Source of the DNA: Psychrobacter cryohalolentis K5
Lineage (GTDB): Bacteria > Pseudomonadota > Gammaproteobacteria > Pseudomonadales > Moraxellaceae
Length of the DNA stretch: 32,000 bases
NCBI RefSeq assembly: GCF_000013905.1
Contig: NC_007969.1
Coordinates: 1,080,001 to 1,112,000, forward strand
Direction of reading: 5' to 3'
Shown: positions 2,629-21,049 of the stretch, in pieces
How positions within the stretch are numbered: position 1 is the stretch's first letter
Layout of the letters: each line of letters starts with the position of its first letter
Notes under the pieces: model-generated
What the model was told of the DNA's origin: nothing
Database searches by the model: none
The model's input: only the letters and a program-made list of their open reading frames with translations
Translations under genes and position numbers: made by a program

Positions 2629-2634
2629 TTGCTA

Positions 2635-5019: not shown

Positions 5020-5030
5020 TATATTCCTCG

Positions 5031-5570: not shown

Positions 5571-5664
5571 TATCTGATAATGTTGCAGGATGCATGCTCA
5601 GTAATTAGGGGAGGGGTACGCTATAAGCAGGCTTTCATAATTGAAGCCATCAAAGATTCAATGG

Positions 5665-6555
5665 TTAATATATCTTTTCTAAAAAAGGCTTCCAGCATAA
5701 GCGTGGTAACTTCATACATATTGGAGCAGACAAAGTTAAATAAGAACTAGAATAGGTAGATAACACATTCCTCATATGTTTAAGTTGAGACTCATAATGC
5801 TGCTCTGCATGAATTTCAGCTTCATATTGACTGCGTAATGTTACATTATAAAAAACTGAAGTATTTTTGTATTGGCGAAAACATAATTCATAAATACTAT
5901 CTTGAAAAAGAAGTTTGTTTTTAATCTCATGGTCAATTTGTGCGTGTAGTATTGTATCTTTGAGCAATTCTTTTACACTTTTCTCAAAATCATCTATGTA
6001 GTAATTCATAGATATTTTAAATAAGGTTTTACGTTTAGGTGTCAGATACTCACCAACATATAGGGCTTCAACCGATAATCTATATGTGTGTGAGTTTGTA
6101 GTTAATGGGACACAATTATTTGATTTAAAATCTTTCTTCCGTAATGTGTAATACCGCTCTGCTACATTTTTTTTAGATTGTGCTGCTGCAATAGCTTCAG
6201 TATATGACTCGTAACTTTTTCTTGCCATCTGGCATTGCTCAGTACTAATCTTCCAAGCTAAGTTCCTATGATATGCTGGGGGTAAAACCGTAATGATCTC
6301 ACCATTACGTTCATCTTGGATAGCCACATAGAAGAACGTGTCCTTAGGGCTAAAAAATAGCAAATGACGACGATATGAACCTGCATGCTGCCCGATGTTC
6401 ACACATGCGCCATTATCAATCAGGCTCATTAATTCTATACTATCCATAGATGTACGCTGAGCAATGCGTTTGGCGGCATGAGAAGATGGATAGGCAAAAC
6501 GTTGTTGACGGAAAATAAAAGCTTTCTGTTCCTTGCTACTCATAAGATCACCCAC
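5665..6555 (-). CDS. Hypothetical protein; N-terminus weakly resembles a DUF4258-type (H-x-x-x-R..QR) small toxin fold
   Basis: 296-aa ORF. The track start is GTG at 6555, but the ATG at 6543 preceded by GGTGGGTGA looks like a better start. The N-terminal SSHAAKRIAQRTSMDSIELMSLIDNG ... EIITVLP pattern recalls DUF4258 from memory only. Confidence 0.45.
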   Translation of the reverse strand: MGDLMSSKEQKAFIFRQQRFAYPSSHAAKRIAQRTSMDSIELMSLIDNGACVNIGQHAGSYRRHLLFFSPKDTFFYVAIQDERNGEIITVLPPAYHRNLAWKISTEQCQMARKSYESYTEAIAAAQSKKNVAERYYTLRKKDFKSNNCVPLTTNSHTYRLSVEALYVGEYLTPKRKTLFKISMNYYIDDFEKSVKELLKDTILHAQIDHEIKNKLLFQDSIYELCFRQYKNTSVFYNVTLRSQYEAEIHAEQHYESQLKHMRNVLSTYSSSYLTLSAPICMKLPRLCWKPFLEKIY

Positions 6556-6565
6556 CTAATTAAAT

Positions 6566-7050
6566 TTAGTTGTTATCAAGCTGAGTCTGACGAAAGGAGA
6601 TCAATATCTAAGCATTCTTAATGACTATGTAGCTCAATGTACCCTATTGTTGAGAGTGAGATTATCAGACTTTATAGTTATGCAACGATAGGTGAACCTT
6701 GTGTCGATAACTATAATTGGCAAGCAAAAAAACTTACTAATGTGATTGGGGCGTTATACGAAAATAGGCTATTTACGCTTGATTAATTTGAAAAAAACGT
6801 TAATGGCAATATCTTCTATGACTAGTTTAAGTACATGCTAATTTCAATCCTTGAGACCAAATGCGTGATTCTGATGGACAATGGAAGCTTTCACAAACGC
6901 GTGTAAAGACTACTTAATAGGTATGGTAATCGTTTATGATTTCTACCACCTACAGTCCTGAGCTAAATTCAGTCGAAAAAATGGGCACAGTATAAATTTC
7001 TATGCCAAGGCTAGATAGAGAATAATCTGCCTAAAATAATTTTATCATAT
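6566..7050 (+). pseudogene. Decayed IS630-family (Tc1/mariner-like) transposase remnant, roughly the C-terminal two thirds
   Basis: Piecing frames together gives YQAESDERR / DQYLSILNDYV / PIVESEIIRLYSYATIGEPCVDNYNWQAKKLTNVIGALYENRLFTLD* / FEKNVNGNIFYD*FKYMLISILETKCVILMDNGSFHKRV* / FLPP / YSPELNSVEKMGTV*. These match the IS630 hallmarks (DEsG region, NvIGAL, vimDNasFHK, LPPYSPELNpiEk). The remnant is interrupted by at least 4 stops and about 3 frameshifts. Confidence 0.6.
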
Positions 7051-7064
7051 AGGATGTTCCAGTT

Positions 7065-7739
7065 TTATATTGAGCTGACTATATATGTTTCTTTATCTAT
7101 TACTGGATAGAAAGGTTTGCCCCAATCCATCTTGCTATGATGAGCCATCATAATCTCTAGCATCAATGGCAAGATAGAGGACAAAATAGCGCCACTATCC
7201 TTGATTTGAGCCCGATTTACTTTACCATTATGCGTAGCACCGCCATGAATAATTTGATTACGTAACGTATATAAGCGGTCGAACACTACAGCCAGTACTG
7301 TATCGGTATCCTTATTGCTCAATGCACGATGTACTTTATCTTTTGCGCGTTTAAAGTCCTCTTCCCAAGCCTGTTGACTGATCTGCCCGTTATGGTAGTC
7401 CCAAAATGGCTGAAAAGTATACTGGTTTTCTAACAGTATGCGAATGCTGCCAGAATAGGTTTCCCACACTAGTTTATAAATTTGCTGGTCAGTATCTAAT
7501 CGGCATATTAATTGTAAAAATCGCCTAAATTCACTACGCTCAGAGCTACTCGAAAATAGCGCCACTTCACGAGCGTAAGCGGCATTAAAGGCTATCCATA
7601 GGGTAATAAAGCGAATATCATCATCATTAACACTGACCGCTTTAGCAAGCCAGCTCAGAGAACGGTGCATACGTAAGCGAAAAGGGTCGGAGAATTCAGA
7701 CTTTTGAGATTGGTAACGGTTCAACACAACATCAGACAT
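7065..7739 (-). CDS. HEPN-domain protein (Rx4H motif), last gene of the operon
   Basis: 224-aa ORF containing LYTLRNQIIHGGATH (R-N-x3-H, DNA about 7240-7268), the canonical HEPN RNase motif, in an all-helical-looking protein. It lies 42 nt downstream of the preceding gene on the same strand. Confidence 0.65.
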   Translation of the reverse strand: MSDVVLNRYQSQKSEFSDPFRLRMHRSLSWLAKAVSVNDDDIRFITLWIAFNAAYAREVALFSSSSERSEFRRFLQLICRLDTDQQIYKLVWETYSGSIRILLENQYTFQPFWDYHNGQISQQAWEEDFKRAKDKVHRALSNKDTDTVLAVVFDRLYTLRNQIIHGGATHNGKVNRAQIKDSGAILSSILPLMLEIMMAHHSKMDWGKPFYPVIDKETYIVSSI

Positions 7740-7781
7740 TTAATTAGTACCATATATAGTTTTTAATGATTAAAAACCGAC

Positions 7782-8153
7782 TTATAGAAAGTCGTCTTGC
7801 ATAGTCACTTTCTGCTGAGGGTGAAGAATAACTGCTATACCATGTTCCTCATCCCAAGAACAATTACAGAGTAAAGCAAACTCTCCATCACGGTTAAACT
7901 GTAATGCAGTAGGTTGGACCACAGAATTAGTAATATTGTTTGTCCCTGTATAATCGTTTAACAGTTCTAAAGATTTTAACTCAAAGTCTGAATGATTGTT
8001 ATCGAAAAGTTTGTAGGATTGCTCTTGCTCATTAGTAACATGCTCTCCTTGAAACGCACTGAAAACGCAATCTATTACAAAATCCTGTTTATTAAGCTTA
8101 AATTTAATAGGTTTCCGCCAGCCATATTTAAATGATAGGTTTGAAATATCCAT
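7782..8153 (-). CDS. Small acidic protein, putative cognate immunity/antitoxin of the upstream nuclease
   Basis: 123-aa ORF starting 10 nt after the nuclease stop, with an AAGGA Shine-Dalgarno. No catalytic motif. The call rests on position only, following the toxin-then-immunity order typical of polymorphic toxin loci. Confidence 0.4.
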   Translation of the reverse strand: MDISNLSFKYGWRKPIKFKLNKQDFVIDCVFSAFQGEHVTNEQEQSYKLFDNNHSDFELKSLELLNDYTGTNNITNSVVQPTALQFNRDGEFALLCNCSWDEEHGIAVILHPQQKVTMQDDFL

Positions 8154-8163
8154 TTTGTAATCC

Positions 8164-8793
8164 TTAGTTATTTGTAATTAACAGCTGTTTTTTGGCAACA
8201 GATATACCACCTTCATGAGGGATGTTATTGTGTACTTCAGAAGGAACAAGTTGCATAGTTTGACAGTCTTTGCATTCATGCCAAGTATAACCATTTTCTT
8301 TACGCCAATTAGCAACCTCTCTAGGTGTGCATTCCCACTTTTCAGCAAGTTTTTCATCAGCTTGAGGAAAGTTCATGTTTCTTTCAGTTGTGAAGTTATC
8401 TATTTTTACTTCATCCTTCATTATTTCCGAAAAATCCGGTTCACCATCTTTAAAAGATATTCCATCAATACCATATTTTTCTTTGAGCTCACCCCAAGTT
8501 AAATTATCCGGATTAGCTTTTAAAGGTATAAAGTTATCATCAGGATTCCATGTTGAGTTGCCCACTTCATCTACCCAATCACCATTACTTACTGGTAGAT
8601 AGGCATTAGATGGACTGATTTCGAGAGACTGTGGATAATACTCTGTAGACCAAGGCTGATCACTAGCAAAGATATTACCTCCCTTATTATTAGGAAAGGT
8701 ATCCCAACATCCATCTTTAGAAAGTAGACTTTCATCAATAATAGGCTTATCGAGTGTTTTCAAAACCTCACTTTGTTTAATAAACTCGATCAT
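8164..8793 (-). CDS. HNH/EndoVII-superfamily nuclease toxin domain protein (WHH / GH-E-like)
   Basis: The C-terminus reads GYTWHECKDCQTMQLVPSEVHNNIPHEGGISVAKK (DNA about 8195-8293). This matches the remembered WHH-family pattern tWHH..g.mqLVp..lH....HtGG. Its start ATG overlaps the ATPase stop (ATGA at 8790-8793). No signal peptide, PAAR, Rhs or LXG-like N-terminus is visible. Confidence 0.7.
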   Translation of the reverse strand: MIEFIKQSEVLKTLDKPIIDESLLSKDGCWDTFPNNKGGNIFASDQPWSTEYYPQSLEISPSNAYLPVSNGDWVDEVGNSTWNPDDNFIPLKANPDNLTWGELKEKYGIDGISFKDGEPDFSEIMKDEVKIDNFTTERNMNFPQADEKLAEKWECTPREVANWRKENGYTWHECKDCQTMQLVPSEVHNNIPHEGGISVAKKQLLITNN

Positions 8794-11700
8794 AAAATCA
8801 TATCCTTAGAAATATTTTGCCAGGCAGTGCTTAAATCATTATGAATACTACGTGTCATATTATCTGATAGTTGAGTTAAATGATTTTTCAGTAAGGTATC
8901 CGCTAATACGTTTAGCTCCACCTTACTTGACATACGAGTTAACTGAGAACTAATCGTTTCTCGTATACCTAATACAGAAAGTAATAAGTTTGTTGCATTA
9001 GTATGATCGGACCATATTGTTGTATGACCGGTTTTTTCAACTTGTTGTATCGAATTAAGCAACCCAATCTTATAATTAGTAGCTATGTTATATTTTTTAG
9101 CACCATCTTTGAGTATCTGTAAGTCAAACGGCTCTGTCTCATCCATTCGTTTATGAAGTAGCAACCTTGCTAAGTGAAGATTAAACTCTTTACGCTGAGT
9201 GCCCACAGTAACTTGTGTAGTAGTGGGGCACTCATATATTTTTTCTTCCCCACTAAAACGATTAATTTTACAAAGGACAGGCTCTAACCAGTTATTTTGA
9301 TAAATAACAGCAACGCCTCTAGGTAGCCTTGCAATCTCTTCAAGCTGGTCGTCGCTGACTGCTGCTGCTTTACCTATTAAGCGACGATCCTGTTCGTCAG
9401 GCAACCTCAAAATAATTTTAGTATTGGTATTACGTATAGCTGAACTGTCCACTGCACTTGGTGATTGGTCAGCAATAATAAAGCCTTCGCCGTAAGTACG
9501 CATCTCAGCGATAGAGTTTGAAAGCATCTCAACGGCTTTACCAGCCACATTTGACCCTTCAGAGCTTTGTTCAGTAGAGGTTCTCTTTAAAAGATGATGA
9601 GCTTCTTCAAGGATAGTGACGTGTTTAAGAGGTTGGTTCATGCCAGAGAATGCCATACGGCGCTCGTTAAGGCGCATGATCAATATACCCATAATGAGAG
9701 ATTTTGTCTCTTGTGAACCGACGCGACTTAAGTCAATGATAACGTTAGAGTCAAAAAGTATATCATTATCAATTTCATCAGAAGCAAAAATCTGACCATT
9801 TAAACCGTTGGTCAAACTTTTAACCCGTGTTGCAAGCGAACCAATATAATTACTTTTAACCTCGTCTGAGTATGCTGATGTATTTATAACGTTATTAATT
9901 GCTTCCAATAAATCATTAAAGTTTGGAAAGATATCTTCGGAATAATAGTTATATGAATTATCAATGTCCCAACCACTGTCTTTGTAGGCTTGAAGCATGG
10001 CATCTTTTAGAACTGCAGGCATCGCAGCATACATCGACCAACACACGTTAAAGATTTCAATGAGTCTATCGATATGTTCTAAAACGTGAATACTTTTGGG
10101 GAATTTAAAAGGGTTTATTTTTAGTAAAGGAGCTTGAGATGGATTGGTTGAAAAAACATGAACATTCTCTAGATGGCCAAAGACATGTTTATATTCACCC
10201 TTAGTAGGTTCAATGACCAAAAATGGAATATTCTTTTTCTGTAGTTGATACATTAACTCGTATACAGTATTACTTTTACCTGACCCTGTTGAACCTGAGA
10301 TAAACACATGACTGGTTAAATTATCGATATCTAAACTAACTTTTTGTGGTAAGTCATTCCATAAGTGTCGAATAACGCCTAGCTCGATGCTTTTATTAGT
10401 AGCAATGTTATGACCATCCAATGATTTGACTTGTCTACCAAATGCTTGAGTTTCTACCACAGCGGTGCTGGAAGTAGATCGACGTGGCATACTAAGCTGA
10501 ATTGCCATCTCTTTACCGGATACTAATGTTGCTGGAGTTAAATATTTAAGCGGTAGAGTGTTGAAAAAATTAGCGTTAAGCCTAGGGTGGTTGAGAACCT
10601 TCAACCATTCAAGCACACTTTGCATTTTACTATTGTTAGATTTATCCCACGTAGTTAAAGCAAAATCCTCAGTATCTGAATTGCCGCCACGCATCAAACC
10701 TAAAAATATGCTTGCTAGAGTCTCAGATGAAGCTGTGCTATTGCCAATAAAGTAGGCAGCGGTTTGCCAGCCACCATAGCGAGAGGCTTCGTCGACACGC
10801 TCTAATTGTTTATCAATCTTCTTAAGCATTTGCTCAATACTTTTATCCGTCATATCAAGCGTTAATTGACGGCTTGAGCCTGTAGTTTTAGTATCTGACT
10901 GAGAGTTGGTTTCACTATTGGTACTGGTTTCACCAGTAGTTCGCCCTGCTGCAGTACTAAAGCTAGTACCTTTATTAACTCCTTGCGACTCTGTATAGCT
11001 AGTACCAGTCGTTTGATTTTCAGCGAATGGATCACTTAGCATTCTACCTACATTACTACCTATCATTGAGCCAATACCAGCTCCTATACTAGCCCCTACT
11101 GGCCCACCTAATGGTGCACCCAATATGCCACCTGCTACAGTAGCGCCTAATGTGATAGCAGTTCCACCAAAAGACGCTACTTTAGATTTATTGGTTTGTT
11201 CAGAAAGTGATTCTGAAGTCCCATAAGCTTTAGAGGTGTTTGTTCCTTCTGTAATTCCAGACGTTTCGGTTTGGCTCAAGCTATCACTTAATGACTGGCT
11301 AAGGCCATGACTGATTGATAGGCTGATAGCCTCACTATCATTCTCGCCATAAGACATTTGTTGTTTTAACAATGGTGAGAGTTGAGTAGCGACACTTTCG
11401 TAACCAGAACGTATATGAGAAAGCTGGGTAGGGGTAACTGGTTCAGCTAAAATAACTGCAGAATAATTATGTCCTTCGGCAGCATCAATGAAGCGCTCGA
11501 GCCCTTGCATAAAGTGCTCTCTTTCTTCCACAGATAGAGAAGGTACACCGGTAACTGCAGTTACAGACTGGACTGTAGACGTACCATCATGGTTTTCGCA
11601 GTATAGACTATCCATTAGGGTTTGAGTTGCTGAACCATTTAATGGTGTAAGCTCACTACCAGAAAAGTGGCCCTTAAAGGTTTCCTGCAATAGCTGACCT

Positions 11701-12062
11701 GCGGTGCCACCTTGAGTGCCACCTGATTGACCACGAGTACCTAAGTATAAGTGAGTCTCAGAACCATCACAGTCTAAAAATATAAACACCGAAAACCCAG
11801 CAGCACCTAACGCATTATAAGCAGCTGTCATACTTTCTAAAACTGATTGCTTATTTTCAAGGACGATGCGCTCAACTTTAAATATTCTAACGTCAGAGCT
11901 TAAGTTAATCTTGTGATTAAATCGTGGTGCAATATCACAGTGACTCAGCTGTGACAGGTAGCTTTTGTTTATCAGATTGCTAGCATCTTGAAGGGCATTA
12001 AATGCCTGTTGTCGTATAAGTTCAGCTTCTGTTTTAGTGGCAAGTGCTATCTGGTTAGTCAT
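8790..12062 (-). CDS. HerA/FtsK-clade P-loop ATPase (1090 aa) with unknown N-terminal domain and Ser/Thr-rich plus glycine-zipper membrane insert
   Basis: Walker A is HVFISGSTGSGKSNTVYEL (DNA about 10270-10310) and Walker B is HVTILEEAHHLL. The HerA-like tail reads FIIADQSPSAVDSSAIRNTNTKIILRLPDEQDR. Residues about 245-400 are Ser/Thr/Gly low complexity flanking GGTAITLGATVAGGILGAPLGGPVGASIGAGIGSMIGSNVG (DNA about 11043-11171). Confidence 0.8.
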   Translation of the reverse strand: MTNQIALATKTEAELIRQQAFNALQDASNLINKSYLSQLSHCDIAPRFNHKINLSSDVRIFKVERIVLENKQSVLESMTAAYNALGAAGFSVFIFLDCDGSETHLYLGTRGQSGGTQGGTAGQLLQETFKGHFSGSELTPLNGSATQTLMDSLYCENHDGTSTVQSVTAVTGVPSLSVEEREHFMQGLERFIDAAEGHNYSAVILAEPVTPTQLSHIRSGYESVATQLSPLLKQQMSYGENDSEAISLSISHGLSQSLSDSLSQTETSGITEGTNTSKAYGTSESLSEQTNKSKVASFGGTAITLGATVAGGILGAPLGGPVGASIGAGIGSMIGSNVGRMLSDPFAENQTTGTSYTESQGVNKGTSFSTAAGRTTGETSTNSETNSQSDTKTTGSSRQLTLDMTDKSIEQMLKKIDKQLERVDEASRYGGWQTAAYFIGNSTASSETLASIFLGLMRGGNSDTEDFALTTWDKSNNSKMQSVLEWLKVLNHPRLNANFFNTLPLKYLTPATLVSGKEMAIQLSMPRRSTSSTAVVETQAFGRQVKSLDGHNIATNKSIELGVIRHLWNDLPQKVSLDIDNLTSHVFISGSTGSGKSNTVYELMYQLQKKNIPFLVIEPTKGEYKHVFGHLENVHVFSTNPSQAPLLKINPFKFPKSIHVLEHIDRLIEIFNVCWSMYAAMPAVLKDAMLQAYKDSGWDIDNSYNYYSEDIFPNFNDLLEAINNVINTSAYSDEVKSNYIGSLATRVKSLTNGLNGQIFASDEIDNDILFDSNVIIDLSRVGSQETKSLIMGILIMRLNERRMAFSGMNQPLKHVTILEEAHHLLKRTSTEQSSEGSNVAGKAVEMLSNSIAEMRTYGEGFIIADQSPSAVDSSAIRNTNTKIILRLPDEQDRRLIGKAAAVSDDQLEEIARLPRGVAVIYQNNWLEPVLCKINRFSGEEKIYECPTTTQVTVGTQRKEFNLHLARLLLHKRMDETEPFDLQILKDGAKKYNIATNYKIGLLNSIQQVEKTGHTTIWSDHTNATNLLLSVLGIRETISSQLTRMSSKVELNVLADTLLKNHLTQLSDNMTRSIHNDLSTAWQNISKDMIL

Positions 12063-12082
12063 GTTTTATCCTATATTTATAG

Positions 12083-13012
12083 TTATCTTAACTTCGCTAT
12101 CAAAGCCAGTATGCCTGCTAGAACAGCGCCACCAATTATAACGGCAGTCTTCATAAAGCTATTTTCTTGTTTAACATGGCTCGACTGCTTACTGCTTGAA
12201 CTGCTACTGGAGGTGTTGTTAAACTGAGGTTTCGGCTTAGGTTGAACTTTTATATGCTCGAAACCTTCTACACCTTTTTGAGCTAAGTAATCGCGAACAT
12301 TGATAAGATGCATTAATCTTTCCATAGCGAAGTTATGGTTAAGATAGCTTTGCTGTAAAAGGAAATAATCTTTATTCCAACTATTGTTGTTTTCAATTAT
12401 GGCAAGACAAAATTTATCTTCTTCATACTCAAGAAAGGCTTCTGGTATATTTTGACTTACAAACATAACCTCTTGAATAATATCTTTAACTAATAATCGA
12501 TTGTTTTTCAAATCAAACTTAATAATATTTTGTACAGCTCTTATGTCTTTTTTCGCGATTGATAGCTGTAGACTTTCTTTAGGTTCATATTCTTTGAGAA
12601 TATCCTTTAAAGCATCAGCATCAGGATTTTCAGATATTAGACTCACATCAATTTCTTGAGTTTCATTACTATTTTCTAGTGTTGACTTGGAGGTTTCGGT
12701 TATTGCAGGGGCATATTGCTCATTATTAATACCGAAGCCTTCTACTTTGTAATCTTGTAGGTAATGTTTTACAGCTATGATATGTTCACAACGCTTTTTG
12801 GAGAACTCCTTATGCTGTATTAGGCTAAGCTCTCCTCGGAAATAGTCTTCATTCCACATACTTTTATTTTTTTTAATTGGATATGTTTCATCATTGAATT
12901 CTACGAAATCAATAGATTGAATATTATCAAGTATGTTCTGAGATGTTTTAGCTGGTATTGAACCATTAGCAGATAGTTCAATAAATTCACTTTTACTATT
13001 TTTTGTGTTCAT
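12083..13012 (-). CDS. Tail-anchored membrane protein with an internally duplicated approx 60-aa domain
   Basis: 309-aa ORF with an AAGGA Shine-Dalgarno. Two related segments are present: ...SMWNEDYFRGELSLIQHKEFSKKRCEHIIAVKHYLQDYKVEGFG and ...NSWNKDYFLLQQSYLNHNFAMERLMHLINVRDYLAQKGVEGFE. These are followed by a poly-Ser linker and a single C-terminal TM helix, TAVIIGGAVLAGILALIAKLR. Confidence 0.6.
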   Translation of the reverse strand: MNTKNSKSEFIELSANGSIPAKTSQNILDNIQSIDFVEFNDETYPIKKNKSMWNEDYFRGELSLIQHKEFSKKRCEHIIAVKHYLQDYKVEGFGINNEQYAPAITETSKSTLENSNETQEIDVSLISENPDADALKDILKEYEPKESLQLSIAKKDIRAVQNIIKFDLKNNRLLVKDIIQEVMFVSQNIPEAFLEYEEDKFCLAIIENNNSWNKDYFLLQQSYLNHNFAMERLMHLINVRDYLAQKGVEGFEHIKVQPKPKPQFNNTSSSSSSSKQSSHVKQENSFMKTAVIIGGAVLAGILALIAKLR

Positions 13013-13119
13013 AACATTCCTTAGGATATATAGGTTTAGATAAGTAGAGTTTTACGGTATATCAGGATTAGCTGTAATATGGCATATAATTCTATTTAAA
13101 GATTATAAGATATAACAGC

Positions 13120-15432
13120 CTATAGAGCTAAAATATTGGTAATTTTAGTATTAAATGTATTAATGTGATTAAGTTCTGCTTTAGCCGTATTAATAGCTTT
13201 CTCACGTTCATCTTTATCATTAATCTTATTTTCTAAATCTGCCATTAGGTTATTAAAGCGTTCGCCAAACTCTTCGTTCATAAAATCAATATATATATCT
13301 ATAGTTTTATTGCTATTGTCCTTAACTTTCTTTACTGCTTCTGCAGAAAGATTTTCAAACACAGCGTCTATTTCTGGACCCCGTTTCGCCCACAAATCAT
13401 CAAGGCTAACAAACTCTTCTTCTTGATTTTCATAAATAGCTTCTTCTGTTGTGCTAAACCAACTAAAAGGGTTGTACCATGTTGAAGCACTAACAGTTCT
13501 TGTTCCTGTTTGAACTCTATGATGTTTAATCTGTACTTCATTCTGCCCTAAAGACATATTAAAAGATGCTATTTGGTTCTTTAAACCCTCTAGCATTGGT
13601 AGCTCTAACTCTGATACATCATTAAATAAGCTGGTTATATATTTATTATAATCTGCTGCTAATTCTGACTGTATCTCTAATTGGTCAGACTCAATGATCT
13701 TTTCTAAATTGATAATGCGTAAGTTAAACTCACTTTGTAAATCATGAGTTAATTTTTTGATTTTCTCTTGAGCCTGTCTTTTAGAGGCTTCTCCTTGAAA
13801 TTTGTTTCCAAAGTCATAAGTAGTCTCTCTCAGGATTTTTTCTTCCTGCATAAATGCTTGAGCTGTTTCTTTTCTTAGTCCTTTTTGCTGCTTTTTTAAT
13901 TTAGTGATATAACCATCTGTTTTGAACGCTTGTTTTTCTTTTTCCCGTAGTATGTTAATAGTCTCTTGCAGATTATTAAGTGCCTGCTGATCAGTTTCAA
14001 GTGATTTTTGTAGTTCAGCAGCATTAGTACATTGTTGTATGATTTGACTGAGTGCTTGATTGGCTCGTGTTACACGGTTAGGAAGACTGTATTTTTCGAT
14101 ATAGTCGTCTATCATCATCTCAACTGCGGGTAGACCACTACGATATAATGCTGTTGAGTAGTTTTTATTATTAATTTTTTCCTGAGTTTTTTTAGATAAG
14201 GGCATATACTGAACTAAATCCATACGTGGCTCTTCATTGAACAGCTCTTCCATTGCATTGATGACACCTCGTTCACTGCGTGTTAATAAGTCGATACTTA
14301 GCTCACGCTTGCGAAGCAAAGAGGTTAAGCTAGCAGATACTGGATATACCAAAGGATTGGCAATACCGTTGTTTTCTAGATATTGTTTGGCACGTGTAAC
14401 TACATCTTCGACATATTCGCCTTTTTCTGGGTCAAATACATCTGCTTTATTAATGACAAAGATAAAGCGATCTTTGCTTTGCTTACCTCCTTTACTCATA
14501 ACATCAGCAATTTGTTTTAGCAGACTTTGATCGTCGTTGATGCCTAGCTGTTGTCCATTTAGAATGTATAGAACTAACGGGTTACGATCAGAATCACTAA
14601 TATATCGCATAGTTGTTAGATTGTGTTCGCTATCTTGACTGTTATTAGGCCCTGGAGTGTCTGTTAAAACTAATCGAACACTCTCTCGTTCTTCTATTGC
14701 AGGTATTTTCCCCTCTATATTAATTCGGAATACATCAGGTGATTTATTCCACTCGCTCATTAGCTGAGATGCCGAGTCAGAGCCTGTTTTTGTCGTAAGA
14801 TTTAATTTTTGTTTCTCATTGACTATACAGTCTTTATTATCTGTACAGCTTACCGTAAAGTGACCTTGTGGCATATCGTCGTTATCAGTAATTTTAGCAA
14901 TTGTAGCTGTGGTTGCTTCGTTTAACGCTGGCAATAAGTCACAACCTAACATAGCATTGATCAGGGTAGACTTACCAGATGACATGGTTGCCACCACATA
15001 GACATCAAAGTTTTTATCAAACGCCGTATCAAACTTCTTGAGTATATCGGGAGTGTTAACATACTGTTTAAACAATGGATCTTGTTTTGCTTCTATTACA
15101 AGCTGTTGAATGTTTTCTAGACGCTCTTCTGAACCTGGTACTACGTCACACCACATCTTGACATTTATTCCGTCTTTGTTGGCTTGTTTAACGGCCTCTT
15201 CCATATCAGTACAGTCTGCTTCTACCCCTTTAAAGTGAACTCTGTATTCTTTTTCACCATTAAATATTTCATATAACTTCTGAAAGAATCCTTCAATCCA
15301 TAGCTGTAGACGTTGATTTTCATATTCAGCGAACTGAGAATTACTCTCAGGTTTTTGGTCATCGATGAGAAAGAAAGTCTCAACTGTAAAAGGATTGTGT
15401 GTGATAGCTACGTTAATCATAAAATACTCCAT
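13120..15432 (-). CDS. Dynamin-like (TRAFAC) GTPase, long form (about 766-770 aa) with N-terminal extension and long coiled-coil C-terminus
   Basis: G1 is VYVVATMSSGKSTLINAMLG (DNA about 14970-15005), G2 region is NEATTATI, G3 is LTDTPGPNN and G4 is VINKADV. The C-terminal approx 350 aa are heptad-like and rich in Glu, Lys and Gln. The start is more likely the ATG at 15420 (GGAG 6 nt upstream) than the one at 15432. Confidence 0.8.
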   Translation of the reverse strand: MEYFMINVAITHNPFTVETFFLIDDQKPESNSQFAEYENQRLQLWIEGFFQKLYEIFNGEKEYRVHFKGVEADCTDMEEAVKQANKDGINVKMWCDVVPGSEERLENIQQLVIEAKQDPLFKQYVNTPDILKKFDTAFDKNFDVYVVATMSSGKSTLINAMLGCDLLPALNEATTATIAKITDNDDMPQGHFTVSCTDNKDCIVNEKQKLNLTTKTGSDSASQLMSEWNKSPDVFRINIEGKIPAIEERESVRLVLTDTPGPNNSQDSEHNLTTMRYISDSDRNPLVLYILNGQQLGINDDQSLLKQIADVMSKGGKQSKDRFIFVINKADVFDPEKGEYVEDVVTRAKQYLENNGIANPLVYPVSASLTSLLRKRELSIDLLTRSERGVINAMEELFNEEPRMDLVQYMPLSKKTQEKINNKNYSTALYRSGLPAVEMMIDDYIEKYSLPNRVTRANQALSQIIQQCTNAAELQKSLETDQQALNNLQETINILREKEKQAFKTDGYITKLKKQQKGLRKETAQAFMQEEKILRETTYDFGNKFQGEASKRQAQEKIKKLTHDLQSEFNLRIINLEKIIESDQLEIQSELAADYNKYITSLFNDVSELELPMLEGLKNQIASFNMSLGQNEVQIKHHRVQTGTRTVSASTWYNPFSWFSTTEEAIYENQEEEFVSLDDLWAKRGPEIDAVFENLSAEAVKKVKDNSNKTIDIYIDFMNEEFGERFNNLMADLENKINDKDEREKAINTAKAELNHINTFNTKITNILAL

Positions 15433-15437
15433 TAGTT

Positions 15438-16430
15438 TTATAAAGTGGTTTTTTGAAATTTATAATTAATAATGTTTTCTAATAAAGGTATACCGCTAAA
15501 ATAAATTAGTTGATTGATTTTACTTTTTGATATTTCTAACCCATCTTTGATCGTAATAGACATATCTTTTTTTTCTGTATTCGGTAATGATATAGTTTTT
15601 ACTTCATCAGATATATTATAAGAGGCTCTTATAAGTCTATCATCATCAAGGTTATGTATGTTTTGTTGTAGCAAATTACGTTCAAATCGAGTAAGAGGTT
15701 CTTTATTTAATACTTTTCTAGCATTTAATGCAGAAAGTGCAGATACTGGTATAATACTAGGGTTTATGAAACCAATGTTTTTTAAATAAGAAGCTATGTT
15801 TCTTACAAAAATTTCAATATCCTCACCTTTTTCTTCATCTAAAACGTCTGCTTTATTAAGTATAAATATAATATTTTTATGCTTATCAGTTTTTAAAACC
15901 TGACTTATCTGTGATAAAAATAGCTTATCGTCATTAATGCCAATTTGAGTAGCGTTTAATACATAGATAATCATTCCATAACGACCATCGCTTACTAAGT
16001 TCAAGGTTAAGTCTTGATGTGTATTATCTTGGCTATTATTAGGACCTGGTGAGTCATACAATACAATGTGCTTACTAGAGTTTTTTATAGAAGGGATATT
16101 ACCGGTTAGACTAATATAGTTGATATTGTTATCCGCATTCCATTTTTTCAATGTTTCACTATCAATAACACTCTTATAGTCTAGAAACTTCAATCTTGCT
16201 TTTTCATTTGATTTAATAGGTTCAAAATTATATGCGGAACCATTAAAGTTATTCTGCTGGTCCTTATTGTGTATTCTCGTTATAGTCGCTGTTGTCGCTT
16301 CGTTAGCACAATGGAGCAGCTCTTTTCCTAACATTGAATTAATAAGTGTGGATTTTCCTGAACTCATCGTCGCTACAACAATAATTTCGAAAAAACTCAC
16401 TACTGACTTACTTCTCTTGTTTTTTGCCAC
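15438..16430 (-). CDS. Dynamin-like (TRAFAC) GTPase, short form (330 aa), paralogue of the downstream gene
   Basis: G1 is IVVATMSSGKSTLINSMLG (DNA about 16350-16385), followed by NEATTATI, G3 LYDSPGPNN and G4 ILNKADV. These motifs are near-identical to those of the 770-aa protein. The GTG start lies 3 nt after the WYL gene stop, and the stop lies 5 nt before the next gene. Confidence 0.8.
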   Translation of the reverse strand: MAKNKRSKSVVSFFEIIVVATMSSGKSTLINSMLGKELLHCANEATTATITRIHNKDQQNNFNGSAYNFEPIKSNEKARLKFLDYKSVIDSETLKKWNADNNINYISLTGNIPSIKNSSKHIVLYDSPGPNNSQDNTHQDLTLNLVSDGRYGMIIYVLNATQIGINDDKLFLSQISQVLKTDKHKNIIFILNKADVLDEEKGEDIEIFVRNIASYLKNIGFINPSIIPVSALSALNARKVLNKEPLTRFERNLLQQNIHNLDDDRLIRASYNISDEVKTISLPNTEKKDMSITIKDGLEISKSKINQLIYFSGIPLLENIINYKFQKTTL

Positions 16431-16433
16431 AAT

Positions 16434-17342
16434 CTAGTTTCCTATTAAATACTTACTTATAGTGATTTCTAAATCTTTCTGAATTTCGCTCGGACTAATG
16501 ATACGTATATAAGGTATCCAGTACTGAACAATAGGAACTACTTCTCTCGGATGTATGTTTTTACATGCTAGTAGCAAATCCCCACTGTCAAGTCTTTGTA
16601 CTAGATTTTGATTGGGCAATAAGTCACGCCGCTCAAAATATCCAGCGACCTTTGCATCGACCTGCAAGATAATCTCACTGATTTGATTGCCAAAGAATAA
16701 GCTATCCGTATCAAGAGTTTCTTTTTTGATATCCTCAGAGCATTGGAAGGTCTCAGTATTTATATGTAACTGGGTCATTTGCGTAAAGCAAAATGTTCTT
16801 GTTTGTCCATGAAGGCGACCTACTACATACCAAATACCATTTTTATTAAGCAGGTGATAAGGTTCTAATAAGTAATGTTTACTATTATTGGAAGCATAGT
16901 CACTGACCTTGCGATAATAAAACTCAATATATTGGTGATTAGTAATGGCTTGGTTAATAGTTCTAAAGTCGTCTGTACGTTCGCTTATATTTTCATAAGC
17001 GAAACCTTTAACGAAAATGCTTTGGTTAAGTTTTTCTTGGAAAAACTGACGGTCAATTTTCGGTAGTAAGTCTTGTACGCTAGCAAAACTAGCAAAACGC
17101 TGAATATCTGCTATATCTAGATATCCAATATTACTAGGGTGCAAGCGATAAAACTGTGGACCTTCTTCATAGAGCTCTAGTAAGGTCAAACGATCCTGAA
17201 AATCTCTCTTTAAGGTGCGGATAGAGACCTTATAGGTGTCTGCTAATTCAAAAATATTCAAACGCTCACCATCGTTAAGTCTAACGATAATGTCAGATAG
17301 TCGATACGCAAGCCTCTCATGTTTTCTCAATTTCATAATCAC
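16434..17342 (-). CDS. WYL-domain transcriptional regulator (HTH + WYL, CapW/BrxR/YafY-like)
   Basis: The N-terminal HTH reads RLSDIIVRLNDGERLNIFELADTYKVSIRTLKRDFQDRL. The WYL core reads HYLLEPYHLLNKNGIWYVVGRLHGQTRTFCFTQMTQL. It is the first gene of the operon. An alternative ATG start exists at 17336. Confidence 0.8.
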   Translation of the reverse strand: MIMKLRKHERLAYRLSDIIVRLNDGERLNIFELADTYKVSIRTLKRDFQDRLTLLELYEEGPQFYRLHPSNIGYLDIADIQRFASFASVQDLLPKIDRQFFQEKLNQSIFVKGFAYENISERTDDFRTINQAITNHQYIEFYYRKVSDYASNNSKHYLLEPYHLLNKNGIWYVVGRLHGQTRTFCFTQMTQLHINTETFQCSEDIKKETLDTDSLFFGNQISEIILQVDAKVAGYFERRDLLPNQNLVQRLDSGDLLLACKNIHPREVVPIVQYWIPYIRIISPSEIQKDLEITISKYLIGN

Positions 17343-17390
17343 TCAACTTGCAAGGTAACTCTGCTTTCAGTTGCATTAAGTTACTAAAAA

Positions 17391-17417
17391 ATAACAAAAA
17401 TAACAAAAATAACAAAA
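17391..17417. repeat. Exact 9-bp tandem repeat ATAACAAAA x3 in the operon leader
   Basis: Read directly as ataacaaaa ataacaaaa ataacaaaa, flanked by further A runs (17386-17419). It lies between the candidate promoter and the WYL gene start. Confidence 0.85.
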
Positions 17418-17421
17418 ATGC

Positions 17422-17450
17422 AATTATGCACTATAATCGTTAATTATCAA
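17422..17450 (-). promoter_or_regulatory. Candidate sigma70-type promoter of the WYL-headed operon
   Basis: On the minus strand there is TTGATA (17450-17445), a 17-nt spacer, then ATAATT (17427-22). An 8-bp palindrome CTTGCAAG sits at 17347-17354, next to the start codon. This is a pattern match only. Confidence 0.3.
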
Positions 17451-18002: not shown

Positions 18003-19184
18003 ATGACTAAGAAAATCAGAACCTATAGTGCAGCTTTCAAAGCTGAAGCCGTCAAAAAATTAGCAGGTAATAATAGCAATGTTTAAGCGACTGCAAAGCA
18101 GCTAGGCATAGCCATGCAGACCTTATCTAACTGGCAGAACAAAGCGAATGAAGGCAAACTTATCGGCACTAAGCAGTATGACCCTGAACTCATGGCTATA
18201 CTAGAAGAGAATAAACGTCTTAAACGTGATCTCAAGATTGCTCAAGAGGAGCGAGAGATATTAAAAAAGGCCACGGCGTACTTCGCGAAACACAGTTGAT
18301 GAAGTACGTCTTTATCAAGGATAACCAGAAGATATTTAGCATTACCTGTATGTGTCGCGTATTAGATGTCAAGCCATCAAGCTATTACAACTGGATAAAT
18401 CGTGGTGTCAGTAATCAGCAGATCCACCGCAACCAGTGTGAGCTGCTGGTTCGCGTGGCTCATGATGAGACTAAGCAGCGCTATGGCTGTGAGCGATTGC
18501 ATGCTCATCTTGCAGGGCAAGGCCATCATATCAGTCAATACATGGTCAGACGAATCAAAAAGGAATACGGCATTGTTTGCCGTCGTCACAAGCGTTTTAA
18601 AGTTACTACCAACTCAAACCATAACAAGCTTATCTATCCAAACCTGCTCGATCAAAAATTTGATACCAGTCGTCCTAACGAAGCTTGGGTTAGTGACATC
18701 ACTTAGATATGGACAGATGAGGGTTGGCTATACTTAGCAGGCGTTAAAGACCTCTACACTAAAGAGATCATCGGCTATGCTATCCACAAGCGTATGACAG
18801 CAGATTTAGTTTGCCGTGCACTTAATATGGCCATCAAGAACAAACGAACCAGCCAAGCGCTGATTGTTCCCTCTGACAGAGGAAGTCAGTACTGTAGTTA
18901 CGAGTATCATAAGATCATTAAGAAACATAGATTTAAGGGCTCAATGTCCAGACGTGGTAATTGCTTTGATAACGCGCCCATAGAAAGCATCTCGGGTGAG
19001 GAGCACTGCTCCGCAAGGAAGAGTGAGTTGGTGTATCACCAAGACTATAAAACCAAGGTTTGGAGCCATCAGTGATATCACTAAATATATCGAACTAGAT
19101 TACAATCAGACTAGGATTCAAAAGGGTTTGGGCTATAAAACGCCAAGACAGATGTGGCTTGATTATTATCGTCAGGCTGCGTAA
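18003..19184 (+). pseudogene. IS3-family transposase OrfAB, disrupted
   Basis: orfA (MTKKIRTYSAAFKAEAVKK...) has an in-frame TAA at 18084-18086. orfB carries the DDE region WVSDIT*IWTDEGWLYLAGVKDLYTKEIIGY with TAG at 18704-18706, then SDRGSQYCS and GNCFDNAPIES. A further frameshift occurs near 19053, before AISDITKYIELDYNQTR. Confidence 0.8.
18263..18269 (+). promoter_or_regulatory. Programmed -1 ribosomal frameshift heptamer A AAA AAG of the IS3 element
   Basis: The heptamer lies in the orfA zero frame (TTA AAA AAG GCC). A -1 slip reads directly into the orfB frame (18296 onward), as is established for the IS3 family. Confidence 0.6.
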
Positions 19185-19404
19185 TTAACCCCCCCCCAAG
19201 TTGTTTTGTACAGATTTGACAGCATAGGTCACTGTGATGAGCAGAGTGATAGACGTGCAAATCATTTAGTTCGATGTGTCATAGATTACACTTAGATTTT
19301 ATTAATGAATAATGACTATAGCAGATAACGTTTAACAGTCTTTTGGTAAGCTTTATACTTTGGCTATATTTATTATTCTTGTTGTTACACGTGAGGTTTT
19401 TAAA

Positions 19405-21048: not shown

Positions 21049-21049
21049 T

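Follow-up and report, generated by a model that had tools for sequence, protein, structure and literature searches.

Eight genes of Psychrobacter cryohalolentis K5, lying within the window (the whole 32,000-nucleotide stretch analysed, positions 1,080,001 to 1,112,000 of NC_007969.1), form a conserved mobile conflict module that combines a constant engine with an exchangeable warhead. The engine consists of one or two dynamin-like GTPases together with the adaptor g4 and a large HerA-clade ATPase (~1000–1100 aa); the warhead pairs a small His-Me-finger DNase, which has an acidic leader, with the cognate immunity protein that always comes after it. The cluster is real and widespread, and is apparently undescribed as a bacterial system; as the first-pass annotation had supposed, no curated model covers it, with PADLOC giving generic HerA/mad8 and WYL matches only and none for the dynamins, and NCBIfam nothing above cutoff, and no name for it was found in the models of either database or in searchable papers. 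We assign a probability of about 45% to the preferred reading, that it protects against phages or plasmids as an inducible, membrane-associated system whose ATPase licenses the DNase.

Table 1. Features of the cluster, in window coordinates.
Feature	Coordinates	Strand	Basis
Putative promoter TTGATA-16-CATAAT, then three tandem TTTTTGTTA repeats just 5' of g1	17385..17450	-	Consensus match only
g1, WYL-domain transcription regulator (HTH + WYL + WCX-like), 300–302 aa	16434..17342	-	Pfam, PADLOC
g2, small dynamin-like GTPase, 330 aa (GTPase domain and short tail)	15438..16430	-	Dynamin_N 67 bits
g3, large dynamin-like GTPase, 770 aa	13120..15432	-	Dynamin_N 50 bits
g3 aromatic loop STWYNPFSWFS, aa 650–660	13453..13485	-	Motif conservation
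g3 hypervariable C-terminal part, aa ~500–770	13123..13935	-	Ortholog pair identities
g4, tail-anchored helical protein, 309 aa	12083..13012	-	Hydrophobicity, AF2 model
g5, HerA-clade ATPase, 1090 aa	8790..12062	-	DUF87 66 bits
g5 Gly/Ala-rich segment, aa 298–339	11046..11171	-	Gly-zipper_Omp weak match, E=0.012
g5 C-terminal tail, aa 945–1090, part of variable 3' module	8793..9230	-	Swap boundary, identity
g6, toxin, 209 aa (leader and WHH/Colicin-DNase His-Me-finger nuclease)	8164..8793	-	WHH 67 bits, Colicin-DNase 60 bits
g7, DUF6985 protein, 123 aa	7782..8153	-	DUF6985 44 bits
g8, HEPN-like protein, 224 aa; Rx4H RNQIIH at aa 160–165 (nt 7245–7262)	7065..7739	-	Motif and weak profiles

The recomputed ORF coordinates place all eight genes on the minus strand between 7065 and 17342, with spacings of 3, 5, 107, 20, −4, 10 and 42 nt, and thus reproduce exactly the positions and intergenic distances first reported. 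The initial domain calls mostly hold, with WYL, two Dynamin_N, DUF87/HerA, WHH/Colicin-DNase and DUF6985 all above their Pfam thresholds. The surroundings had been described as insertion sequence debris on both sides, but the fragments (IS3, IS256 and IS630) are confined to the WYL side, at 18.1–23.3 kb; the opposite flank holds two ORFs without assignment, a 794-aa ORF that had been taken for a recombinase but has no Pfam match, and a truncated tyrosine recombinase.

The order of dynamin(s), tail-anchored protein, ATPase, small DNase and immunity gene is invariant in ~45 loci from ~29 genera of Pseudomonadota, Bacillota and Spirochaetota, including Lactococcus, Bacillus and Treponema plasmids. 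Linkage across genera had been chosen beforehand as a point on which the proposal could fail; it stands up to this, and because the same order recurs in dozens of genomes the arrangement is not due to chance. The unit first described as an eight-gene operon is constant in its dynamin(s), g4, ATPase, toxin and immunity gene, whereas the WYL gene is usual only, and both g8 and the small dynamin count as accessory. Every complete locus with a dynamin-type engine, in all three phyla, has the DNase–immunity pair within 27 nt after the ATPase gene, the one exception found being Ruminococcus, where the ATPase has different partners and no nuclease; the ATPase–nuclease–immunity trio persists where the dynamins are replaced. 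Carriers include conjugative plasmids (Lactococcus pF27B and an ETEC IncI plasmid), megaplasmids and integrase-bearing islands, and among 5426 complete E. coli genomes a single one has the cluster, on a plasmid. Flanking genes are rich in defence and mobile types (DRT, MADS, MkoA, PD-Lambda-1, HEC-06, SoFic, GmrSD, dCTP deaminase and integrases), with an Abi_2 gene near the cluster on the Lactococcus plasmid; these mobile or defence-island contexts agree with the early suggestion of mobile cargo. In Haemophilus and Pasteurella the cluster is chromosomal and sits between housekeeping genes, in Haemophilus outside a defence island.

The regulator g1 matches WYL at 46 bits in Pfam (cutoff 21.8) and at E=1.9e-23 in PADLOC, with HTH_11 and WCX sub-threshold; its start is the GTG at 17342 or, in the NCBI gene call, the ATG at 17336 (300 aa). 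A WYL gene is linked in ~30 of the 35 assessable loci: 23 have it upstream in the same orientation, 2 have it divergent, and in ~5 it lies a short way downstream. The Lactococcus, Bacillus and Treponema versions carry one too. The repeats and putative promoter upstream of g1 are a tentative candidate for an operator, in a region where the number of promoter-like sites is not above shuffled expectation.

The G1 (ATMSSGKS), G3 (DSPG) and G4 (NKAD) motifs of g2 are kept in 37 of 38 orthologues; the gene is absent in Pasteurella and Rodentibacter, and in Moraxella oculi it forms a fusion with the large dynamin. In g3 a family-specific N-domain (aa 1–135) precedes the GTPase (aa 144–329) and a helical C-terminal half, and G1/G3/G4 are kept in 37–38 of 39 orthologues; plasmid copies of this dynamin type always accompany the ATPase (8/8). 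Pairs of g3 orthologues that are 85–98% identical over the N-terminal 500 aa fall to 30–58% over aa ~500–770, and amid this variable region the motif S-x-W-[YW]-[NK]-P-[FW]-[ST]-W-[GF] is kept in nearly all orthologues, making the aromatic loop a candidate membrane-inserting paddle tip.

The adaptor g4 has no match in Pfam, NCBIfam or PADLOC. It carries internal repeats (aa 53–93 and 212–251), a Ser-rich linker and a C-terminal hydrophobic helix (aa 286–309; KD 2.3–3.2 in nearly all genera), with its N-terminal ~200 aa hypervariable; the AF2 model has two helical domains (pLDDT about 70–94) and no PDB fold match. Lactococcus has the gene split in two; in Bacillus a pair of small genes takes its place, and homology is detectable only for the tail-anchored member.

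The ATPase g5 comprises a conserved N-domain (aa 1–235; AF2 pLDDT 50, no fold match), a Ser/Thr-rich linker (aa 236–405; 34% S+T), a HerA/DUF87 core (aa 573–940) with Walker A (590–597) and Walker B (816–822) motifs that are present in 40/40 orthologues, and a fast-evolving tail; the family has more than 150 full-length clusters at 50% identity. The core scores best against HerA, CedD and mad8 models, with FtsK_SpoIIIE below threshold, but all of the matches (NCBIfam CedD and HerA, PADLOC mad8 and HerA) are far below family cutoffs. The first-pass annotation had called this protein membrane-embedded, which its family bears out weakly at most: the Gly/Ala-rich segment is a marginal candidate for a glycine-zipper membrane hairpin (Kyte-Doolittle ~1.4, estimated by hand, and not the protein's KD19 maximum), a hydrophobic hairpin is missing in Bacillus and enterobacterial orthologues and in 57% of 139 family representatives, and only 24% of these reach KD >= 1.6 in the region.

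The nuclease domain of g6 (aa 115–202) follows an acidic, probably disordered leader (aa 1–110; 19 D+E versus 8 K+R), with no signal peptide and a hydrophobicity maximum of 0.30. The LDKPI at aa 14–18 (nt 8740–8754) fits the leader motif [LIVMF][DNE][KR]P[LIVMFA], which is found in 28 of 40 toxins versus 5% of background ORFs and is shared across unrelated nuclease domains. The ATPase–toxin junction is <=27 nt everywhere and often a 4-nt overlap, here the ATGA joining the g5 stop and g6 start. A DUF6985 protein is always paired with the WHH-A toxin type, in the Lactococcus plasmid too, and where the toxin type differs, SUKH or YezG-like proteins take its place; since g7 swaps together with its toxin, it behaves as the cognate immunity protein or antitoxin of the WHH-A nuclease, in keeping with the early label of immunity-like partner. 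The cassette is swapped between close relatives while the dynamin–ATPase machine is conserved, and two clean replacements lie between ~95–97%-identical flanks, in Ursidibacter and at one chromosomal site in Haemophilus. Similarity in the Ursidibacter swap ends about 125 codons before the ATPase stop, and the g5 tail is 16–37% identical where the ATPase body is 65–95%. Four toxin families were seen, all His-Me-finger DNases, with catalytic motifs conserved as in both GTPases and the ATPase. The cassettes combine WHH, LHH or Endonuclease_NS_2 with SUKH, DUF6985 or YezG-like proteins, all of them toxin or immunity families of secreted polymorphic toxins used between bacteria.

Between about a quarter and a third of loci have the last gene, g8, among them loci of Psychrobacter, Pasteurellaceae, Shewanella and Salinicola, and it stays conserved across the toxin cassette swap. 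Its earlier assignment as HEPN stands on the motif R160-N-Q-I-I-H165 (R-N-Q-x-x-H), invariant in 7 diverse homologues, and on weak profile matches (HEPN_RiboL-PSP in 6/7 homologues, best E=0.0015; PADLOC Csx1/CARF_HEPN at E about 0.008), but no Pfam match reaches threshold.

For the defence reading, the first of two hypotheses originally offered and here weighed above the second, toxin export, we infer every functional step. The system would act by abortive infection at the inner face of the cytoplasmic membrane, with the WYL protein repressing the operon until a DNA-damage or infection signal. The g4 protein and the aromatic loop of the large dynamin would recruit the dynamins to the membrane, where they would respond to perturbation at an injection or lysis site. 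An ATPase hexamer would hold the DNase through the toxin leader and its own variable C-terminal tail and, once activated, would spend ATP either on prising DNase and immunity protein apart or on feeding DNA to the nuclease, leading to DNA degradation; the HEPN RNase, where present, may be a second effector.

We favour defence because of the frequent linkage of the WYL regulator, the flanks rich in defence and mobile-element genes, the accessory HEPN gene with no antitoxin partner, a set of parts that is the same in monoderms and diderms and includes neither a channel nor an outer-membrane component, and the scores of the ATPase core. Absence of the hairpin from most of the ATPase family argues for no conserved pore and favours an intracellular role, the restriction of all four toxin families to DNases fits a DNA-handling HerA-clade motor, and the hypervariable cytoplasmic patches (the large dynamin C-terminus and g4 N-terminus) fit an intracellular arms race. 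Against defence count the cassette families, known from secreted toxins, their exchange between close relatives, like competition loci, and the resemblance of leader motif and variable tail to a substrate signal and receptor, as in type VII secretion EssC variants; we also know of no characterised defence system with a SUKH-type immunity protein, and the Haemophilus locus is not in a defence island. No close phage-encoded homologue of these immunity proteins was found, so diversification driven by phages has no direct support.

The way the cassette behaves like a polymorphic toxin lends real support to the main rival, a system dedicated to exporting or delivering the toxin in interbacterial competition, which is possible though rather unlikely. 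Here the ATPase would recognise the toxin leader with its variable tail, strip off the immunity protein and drive the DNase out, with the dynamins and g4 remodelling or resealing the membrane, a logic like that of T7SSb EssC-EsaD-EsaG or of SOS-induced colicin release, although the machinery is unrelated. The bona fide polymorphic-toxin families, the clean cassette replacements, the concurrent exchange of the ATPase tail in Ursidibacter (as in essC variants), the leader common to unrelated nucleases, the survival of the trio after dynamin replacement and the occurrence in monoderms, where an inner-membrane machine would suffice, all agree with export. It would have to work, however, without a conserved membrane channel, without an outer-membrane component in diderm hosts, and with ~200-aa toxins that lack both a receptor-binding domain and any recognisable translocation domain with which to enter target cells. 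Polymorphic toxin pools are normally chemically diverse, whereas these are DNases only, and the loci showed no arrays of orphan immunity genes; outward scission of vesicles would require a topology that cytoplasmic dynamins do not have, and export leaves the WYL regulation, HEPN gene and defence-island flanks unexplained.

Carriage on conjugative plasmids, megaplasmids and islands, the rarity and plasmid location in E. coli, and the recombinase genes adjoining the cluster in the window would also suit an addiction module that stabilises the plasmid or island, formed by the nuclease–immunity pair, with the engine serving element maintenance, entry exclusion or inter-element competition and not host defence. 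We consider this improbable: a simple toxin–antitoxin pair would be enough, leaving a conserved ~8 kb engine with three NTPases unexplained, there are no replication, partition or relaxase partners, and the Haemophilus and Pasteurella loci are stably chromosomal. Least probable is that there is no single system, and that a dynamin/ATPase module (e.g. for housekeeping membrane repair) merely neighbours an independent toxin–immunity pair and HEPN gene. In its favour, the accessory g8 is on the opposite strand in one Salinicola locus and in one case has other genes in between, the gap between g7 and g8 holds a terminator-like hairpin (a kind of site no more frequent than shuffling predicts), and the cassette recombines independently of the engine; against this stand the tight and often overlapping ATPase–cassette junction outside Ruminococcus, the persistence of the trio, the divergence of the ATPase tail along with the cassette, and a patchy distribution on mobile elements that is unlike a housekeeping function.

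On the evidence available, the eight minus-strand genes g1–g8 represent an undescribed and widespread system with an architecture unlike the known kinds; prior naming in newer DefenseFinder or PADLOC releases is conceivable. The ORFs called consecutively in the first-pass annotation, from 17342 down to 7065, match exactly in coordinates, with spacings of 3, 5, 107, 20, -4, 10 and 42 nt, and most of the domains assigned to them are upheld by Pfam, PADLOC and NCBIfam scans. They code for a WYL regulator (g1), a small and a large dynamin-like GTPase (g2, g3), a tail-anchored protein (g4), a HerA-clade ATPase (g5), a DNase toxin (g6), its immunity protein (g7) and a HEPN-like protein (g8). The window is identical in sequence to the Psychrobacter-type chromosome CP022043.2 (GCA_002208765.2), and Rfam and tRNA scans of it found nothing.

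Features of the system and its surroundings. Positions are in nt of the window unless another sequence is named.
Feature	Position	Strand	Length (aa)	Content
g1, WYL regulator		minus		WYL above cutoff; HTH_11 (17 bits) and WCX (14 bits) sub-threshold, order correct
g2, small dynamin		minus	330	Dynamin_N above cutoff
g3, large dynamin		minus	770	Dynamin_N above cutoff
g4, tail-anchored protein		minus	309	No family match in Pfam, PADLOC or NCBIfam
g5, ATPase		minus	1090	DUF87/HerA core at aa 573-940
g6, DNase toxin		minus	209	WHH and Colicin-DNase
g7, immunity protein		minus	123	DUF6985
g8, HEPN-like protein		minus	224	No significant family match
Tandem repeats	17385-17415	minus		TTTTTGTTA, three copies, between promoter-like TTGATA-16-CATAAT (17450-17423) and the WYL start codon
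Terminator-like hairpin and T-run	7778-7794	minus		Overlaps the g7 end, before g8
ORFs downstream of g8	1-6555	minus	296, 179, 794	296- and 179-aa ORFs without known family; 794-aa ORF without Pfam match
Tyrosine recombinase	within 1-6555, beyond the 794-aa ORF	minus	1150 in full record	Truncated by the window edge
IS fragments, WYL side	18114-23320			Remains of IS3, IS256 and IS630 elements (the last two in the rows below); the IS3-family element (HTH_21, rve) is broken into several ORFs
IS256/Mutator transposase	21710-22099 and 22020-22991			Frameshift-split
IS630 HTH fragment	22988-23320
HNH and methyltransferase genes	23477-25184	plus	353, 208	HNH_4/HNH endonuclease, followed at once by a SAM-dependent methyltransferase
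RNase H/helicase gene	26535-30642	plus	1172	RNase_H_2 (PF13482) exonuclease-like domain and Upf1-type AAA_11/AAA_12 helicase; weak nSTAND matches; the range includes the 191-aa ORF that follows
E. coli TW10590 locus (L052)	pTW10590_133, 4847-13246			System on plasmid
Ruminococcus albus 7 locus (L053)	pRUMAL01, 5130-12596			ATPase of the g5 family, 41% identical
Aggregatibacter actinomycetemcomitans Fic gene (L057)	11487-12833		448	Fic-domain protein between the immunity gene and the g8/HEPN homologue

Judged by its domain order, HTH-WYL-WCX, g1 has the layout of a BrxR/CapW-type WYL regulator and is a putative repressor; the WCX domain is clear in its Paraburkholderia and Pasteurella orthologues. 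Among orthologues the catalytic motifs of the two GTPases, of the ATPase and of the nucleases are conserved, and the dynamin G1, G3 and G4 motifs are kept in at least 37 of 38 orthologues of g2 and g3. A conserved aromatic loop of g3 (STWYNPFSWFS), inside the variable half of the protein, is a plausible candidate for a paddle tip, which we propose would insert into the membrane. The g4 protein is predicted to fold into two helical domains, and a search of the PDB with this usable model found no relative (best E=1.7). The motif RNQIIH of g8 (R-N-Q-x-x-H) is invariant across seven diverse homologues, six of which match HEPN_RiboL-PSP weakly (best E=0.0015), and Apea-like and MAE_28990-like profiles are matched weakly by one member each; the g8 profile has no match among PDB sequences.

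The universal membrane link of the system is g4, since its C-terminal helix shows strong hydrophobicity (KD 2.3-3.2) in nearly every genus and includes an IGGA motif of small residues; in a Psychrobacter/Moraxella subclade the helix is amphipathic. The ATPase had been described as membrane-embedded, which does not hold as a family trait: its Gly/Ala-rich segment is marginal in g5, is lacking in the Bacillus and enterobacterial proteins, and is clearly hydrophobic in 24% of 139 family representatives. This segment is thus not a defining feature and provides no conserved candidate channel. The Ser/Thr-rich linker of the ATPase is universal in the family.

Full-length homologues of g5 at about 50–60% identity are found in many Gamma- and Betaproteobacteria, and the family is large: in a profile search the 150th-best 50%-identity cluster is still full-length at 809 bits. 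Surveying a single genome for each species gave 38 loci, essentially all of which have the order small dynamin, large dynamin, g4-like protein and ATPase, with a nuclease of about 200 aa and then a partner of about 135 aa directly 3' of the ATPase gene (gap of at most 27 nt, often a 4-nt overlap). The first-pass annotation had staked the idea of a system on conserved linkage across genera, and this gene order does recur, in several phyla. It is present with the WYL gene on a conjugative dairy plasmid of Lactococcus cremoris, a Bacillus megaplasmid and a plasmid of Treponema saccharophilum. An ETEC IncI plasmid has the same genes without an annotated WYL gene, and with an IS66 transposase upstream of the dynamins. 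This plasmid, pTW10590_133 of E. coli TW10590, is conjugative, has etpB among its other genes, and is the sole occurrence among 5426 complete E. coli genomes. The leoABC genes, the classic dynamin locus, are likewise an ETEC feature; their gene content is unrelated to that of the TW10590 locus. Of the 35 assessable loci, 23 have a WYL gene upstream in the same orientation, and about seven others have one nearby. The g8 gene is accessory: Psychrobacter, Pasteurellaceae, Shewanella and Salinicola have it, and the Salinicola locus encodes it on the opposite strand.

The core of the system is defined by its variants. The two dynamins are fused into one two-headed protein in Moraxella oculi, the small dynamin is missing and g4 is short in Pasteurella and Rodentibacter, and g4 is split into two genes in Lactococcus; two small genes occupy the g4 position in Bacillus, and detectable similarity to g4 is confined to the tail-anchored one. 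In Exiguobacterium the ATPase, WHH nuclease and SMI1/KNR4 genes are retained, with a 658-aa protein of no known family in place of the dynamin/g4 block, and in Ruminococcus the ATPase is present with other partners and no nuclease. The Ruminococcus albus plasmid pRUMAL01 has an HD-domain gene upstream, and its ATPase gene is flanked on one side by the gene for a 543-aa protein without known family and on the other by that for a protein of 515 aa whose C-terminal part includes a Gly/Ala-rich segment. This locus has no nuclease, immunity gene or clear dynamin (the 543-aa protein matches g3 at just 24 bits), and is possibly a sister system that uses another effector. One clostridial locus (L047) was rejected as a member, as its HerA gene, of 612 aa, is a generic one. 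IMG/VR contigs gave no close relatives of the ATPase; a phage collection yielded one weak partial match and a full-length relative on a single 7-kb contig, unverified and labelled 'Bacteriophage sp.', and no close homologues of the immunity proteins.

Four toxin/immunity combinations were found among the loci examined, and all of the toxins are His-Me-finger DNases: LHH with SUKH_5/6, WHH/Colicin-DNase with DUF6985 (in the window and on the Lactococcus plasmid), WHH/Colicin-DNase with SUKH_6, and, in one Haemophilus cassette, Endonuclease_NS_2 with a weakly YezG-like protein. Two clean cassette replacements were mapped, with flanks 93-98% identical and zero similarity across the cassette. The DNA of Ursidibacter arcticus and U. 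maritimus is about 95% identical over a stretch that begins at the WYL gene and ends about 125 codons short of the ATPase stop, interrupted by a divergent patch of about 600 nt within the large-dynamin gene, which belongs to the second hypervariable patch treated below; the ATPase tail, toxin and immunity genes are without similarity, and 93% identity resumes exactly at the g8 start. Two Haemophilus contigs with the system at the shared purC-prfC site are 97.6% identical until about codon 7 of the toxin gene, have no similarity over the toxin and immunity genes, and return to 96% identity about 70 nt before g8.

The toxins share an acidic leader of about 100 aa in which the motif [LF]D[KR]P[hydrophobic] is present in 28 of 40 toxins, compared with 5% of background ORFs, and is common to toxins with unrelated nuclease types; Pasteurellaceae leaders have PFK[IM]PDI or ELP-type motifs in its place. 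The leader contains no Pfam domain and no signal peptide (KD maximum 0.30). The C-terminal 150 aa or so of the ATPase are fast-evolving in all lineages compared, and in close pairs the divergence of this tail follows that of the toxin and the immunity protein (rho 0.84 and 0.92, respectively, values confounded by phylogeny and adjacency). That the tail tracks nuclease type as a general rule was rejected, as divergence within a toxin type equals that between types. A second hypervariable patch comprises the C-terminal 270 aa or so of g3 and the N-terminal 200 aa or so of g4, which are 22-58% identical where the remainder is 85-100% identical. Strict co-variation of these two regions was also rejected, as the g3 region has diverged between the Ursidibacter species and g4 is still 94% identical.

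The first-pass annotation knew of no named system combining these modules, and no curated model names the cluster: PADLOC provides generic HerA/mad8 and WYL matches, and all NCBIfam matches are far below their cutoffs. The dynamins resemble those of Eleos (LeoA with LeoBC) in being paired, co-transcribed GTPases with intact G1–G4 motifs and in their location on mobile islands, and the fused Moraxella oculi form resembles the two-headed DynA of B. subtilis. Eleos/LeoABC and DynA are linked to phage defence or toxin release. Eleos, however, consists of two genes without an ATPase, nuclease, immunity protein or tail-anchored adaptor, whereas the dynamins here are always linked to g4, an ATPase of about 1000-1100 aa, a DNase and an immunity protein, and one of them is a 330-aa GTPase-only protein that is dispensable in some lineages. 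Neither g2 nor g3 has a PADLOC match at E <= 0.1, in a library that includes other systems from the Eleos discovery paper, such as MkoA, and in which inclusion of the Eleos models is unconfirmed; the NCBIfam DynA match reaches 43 bits against a cutoff of 1600.

As in Sir2-HerA, DUF4297-HerA and archaeal HerA-NurA, a HerA-clade P-loop ATPase adjoins an effector that targets nucleic acid, and the system plausibly shares, by analogy, the motor-plus-nuclease logic of these systems. The ATPase matches PADLOC HerA and NCBIfam HerA_antiphage at E of about 1e-21 to 1e-23 over its core only, and g5 scores 76 bits against the anti-phage HerA equivalog NF042943 (cutoff 800). It is twice the length of those ATPases and differs further in its unique N-domain, in a tether rich in Ser and Thr, and in a tail that varies; in place of Sir2, DUF4297 or NurA, the effector is a DNase of the His-Me-finger type that comes with an immunity protein, with no Sir2 or DUF4297 effector in any locus examined, and the dynamins and g4 have no counterpart there. 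The best PADLOC match of the ATPase core is mad8 (89 bits), but the operon has no further mad component and is thereby distinguished from MADS.

A large FtsK/HerA-superfamily ATPase whose variable C-terminus changes with the downstream toxin and immunity genes is reminiscent of EssC in T7SSb, as are the SUKH-type immunity proteins and the Haemophilus pair of Endonuclease_NS_2 and a weakly YezG-like partner, which corresponds to the EsaD/EsaG pairing. Unlike EssC, a multi-domain FtsK/SpoIIIE ATPase with two transmembrane helices, the ATPase here carries only one DUF87/HerA domain, with FtsK_SpoIIIE below its cutoff (22 bits; cutoff 24), and a membrane segment that is not conserved; the system is mainly in diderms, the toxins have a short acidic leader that is probably disordered rather than a helical hairpin, and Pfam and PADLOC detected no WXG100, LXG, EssA, EssB or EsaA among the proteins scanned.

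Polymorphic toxins, colicin E-type bacteriocins and S-pyocins likewise pair WHH, LHH or Colicin-DNase domains with adjacent cognate immunity genes and exchange cassettes by recombination between related strains. By analogy with nuclease bacteriocins, expression may be induced by DNA damage, with the WYL protein in the role of LexA. The toxins here nonetheless have no receptor-binding, translocation or known trafficking domains and no lysis gene, and the repertoire is of DNases only, coupled to a three-protein NTPase engine. Relative to the polymorphic-toxin features set out by Zhang et al. 2012 (PMC3482391), there is a C-terminal toxin of known family with adjacent immunity, and cassette recombination; the leader has none of the known secretion-route N-domains (Sec, T5SS/TPS, T6SS PAAR/VgrG, T7SS WXG/LXG, Rhs), and that paper lists, apart from T7SS, no dynamin- or HerA-coupled route. 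Functional analogies can be drawn with Zorya and Kiwa, where a membrane-associated module is joined to a DNA-targeting effector, and with Fis1/Mff-Drp1, as a tail-anchored helical protein is encoded beside dynamins without a transmembrane segment, but there is no sequence or fold relationship to any of these, g4 having no fold match in the PDB. The system shares parts with Eleos, HerA-effector systems, T7SSb and polymorphic toxins, and lacks at least one defining feature of each. The gene combination is not described in the portions available of the open full-text literature, including PMC3482391, PMC3113570, PMC7159879 and PMC12629846, with subscription-only papers beyond reach.

We favour an inducible anti-phage or anti-plasmid abortive-infection system at the inner face of the membrane, with a probability of roughly 0.45. 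As we infer its steps, the WYL protein would hold the operon repressed pending a damage or infection signal, and g4 would recruit the dynamins, which would respond to membrane perturbation. The DNase would be held by the ATPase through the toxin leader and the ATPase tail, and the activated ATPase would strip the immunity protein off the DNase or feed DNA to the nuclease, with the HEPN protein as a second effector in some lineages. We favour this reading because the WYL regulator is near-universal, the flanks resemble defence islands, the HEPN protein is partnerless, the cytoplasmic surfaces are hypervariable, and the effectors are exclusively DNases, encoded beside a HerA-clade motor; monoderms and diderms also share one identical parts list, which includes neither an outer-membrane part nor a conserved pore.

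The main rival, a dedicated export of toxin for interbacterial competition, parallel to EssC-EsaD-EsaG, would account for toxin and immunity families that are those of polymorphic toxins, for replacement of cassettes within species, and for the leader motif and variable ATPase tail, but there is no channel, the toxins have no domain for entry into a target and the toxin class is not diverse, and we regard it as somewhat unlikely. It is also unlikely that the engine is an unrecognised apparatus for protein translocation and toxin delivery common to monoderms and diderms, a new killing system with parts unprecedented in secretion, in which the HerA-clade ATPase would detach the leader-tagged DNase from its immunity protein by threading, and drive it into or through the membrane, with membrane remodelling by the dynamin-like GTPases and the tail-anchored adaptor. 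An addiction or exclusion role for mobile elements, several of which carry the system, is very unlikely, and a coincidental neighbourhood without any single system, set beside the recurrent gene order, is scarcely credible; the remaining probability belongs to mechanisms that we have not thought of.

If the abortive-infection reading is true, this is a new class of membrane-associated immune system in which a HerA motor would license an immunity-bound nuclease, and bacterial dynamins would gain a defined set of molecular partners, which Eleos, LeoABC and DynA have so far lacked. If export is true, the system is a new pathway of secretion or delivery, which would be the larger discovery. Under either reading the system is common, and is present in human-associated and veterinary bacteria, its hosts including Haemophilus parainfluenzae, Aggregatibacter actinomycetemcomitans, Pasteurella multocida and an ETEC virulence-type plasmid. 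It is also carried on conjugative plasmids of dairy Lactococcus starters, where both phage resistance and bacteriocins are commercially relevant. The modular toxin/immunity cassette and conserved leader motif make the system directly testable.

The three tandem repeats upstream of g1 are a possible operator for WYL autoregulation. The hairpin at the end of g7 might partly uncouple transcription of g8; the number of such sites in the region does not exceed the shuffled expectation. The 179-aa and 794-aa genes downstream of g8 also adjoin the system in another Psychrobacter, and therefore look like part of the carrier element rather than of the system. The HNH and methyltransferase genes possibly form a small restriction-modification-like or mobile module. 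The 1172-aa RNase H/helicase gene is followed by a 191-aa ORF without known family, and the two have the look of a further candidate defence pair within the island.

At 19 other loci, 146 flanking ORFs match 44 PADLOC families at E <= 1e-10, including DRT, MADS, MkoA, PD-Lambda-1, HEC-06, SoFic and NERD+UvrD, and those flanks also hold integrases, GmrSD, dCTP deaminases and antirestriction genes; the Lactococcus copy is about 6 kb from an Abi_2 gene. Haemophilus and Pasteurella have housekeeping genes on both sides of the system. Three Pasteurellaceae loci, in Haemophilus and Aggregatibacter (L006, L056, L057), have a very basic, conserved ORF of 81-85 aa (e.g. MKAYMKKKITLKEFKNRQEK...) between the WYL and small-dynamin genes that is missing from the window, and the A. 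actinomycetemcomitans locus also has the Fic-domain gene. In four Paraburkholderia loci (L005, L013, L016, L021) and one of Herbaspirillum (L025), the immunity gene is followed directly by a conserved pair coding for a 418-424-aa protein without known family and a 683-694-aa PLD-like (PLDc_2) protein, and in Paraburkholderia phytofirmans a pair made up of a WYL gene and a NERD/UvrD-helicase gene lies upstream of the system; these neighbours are possibly adjoining defence systems.
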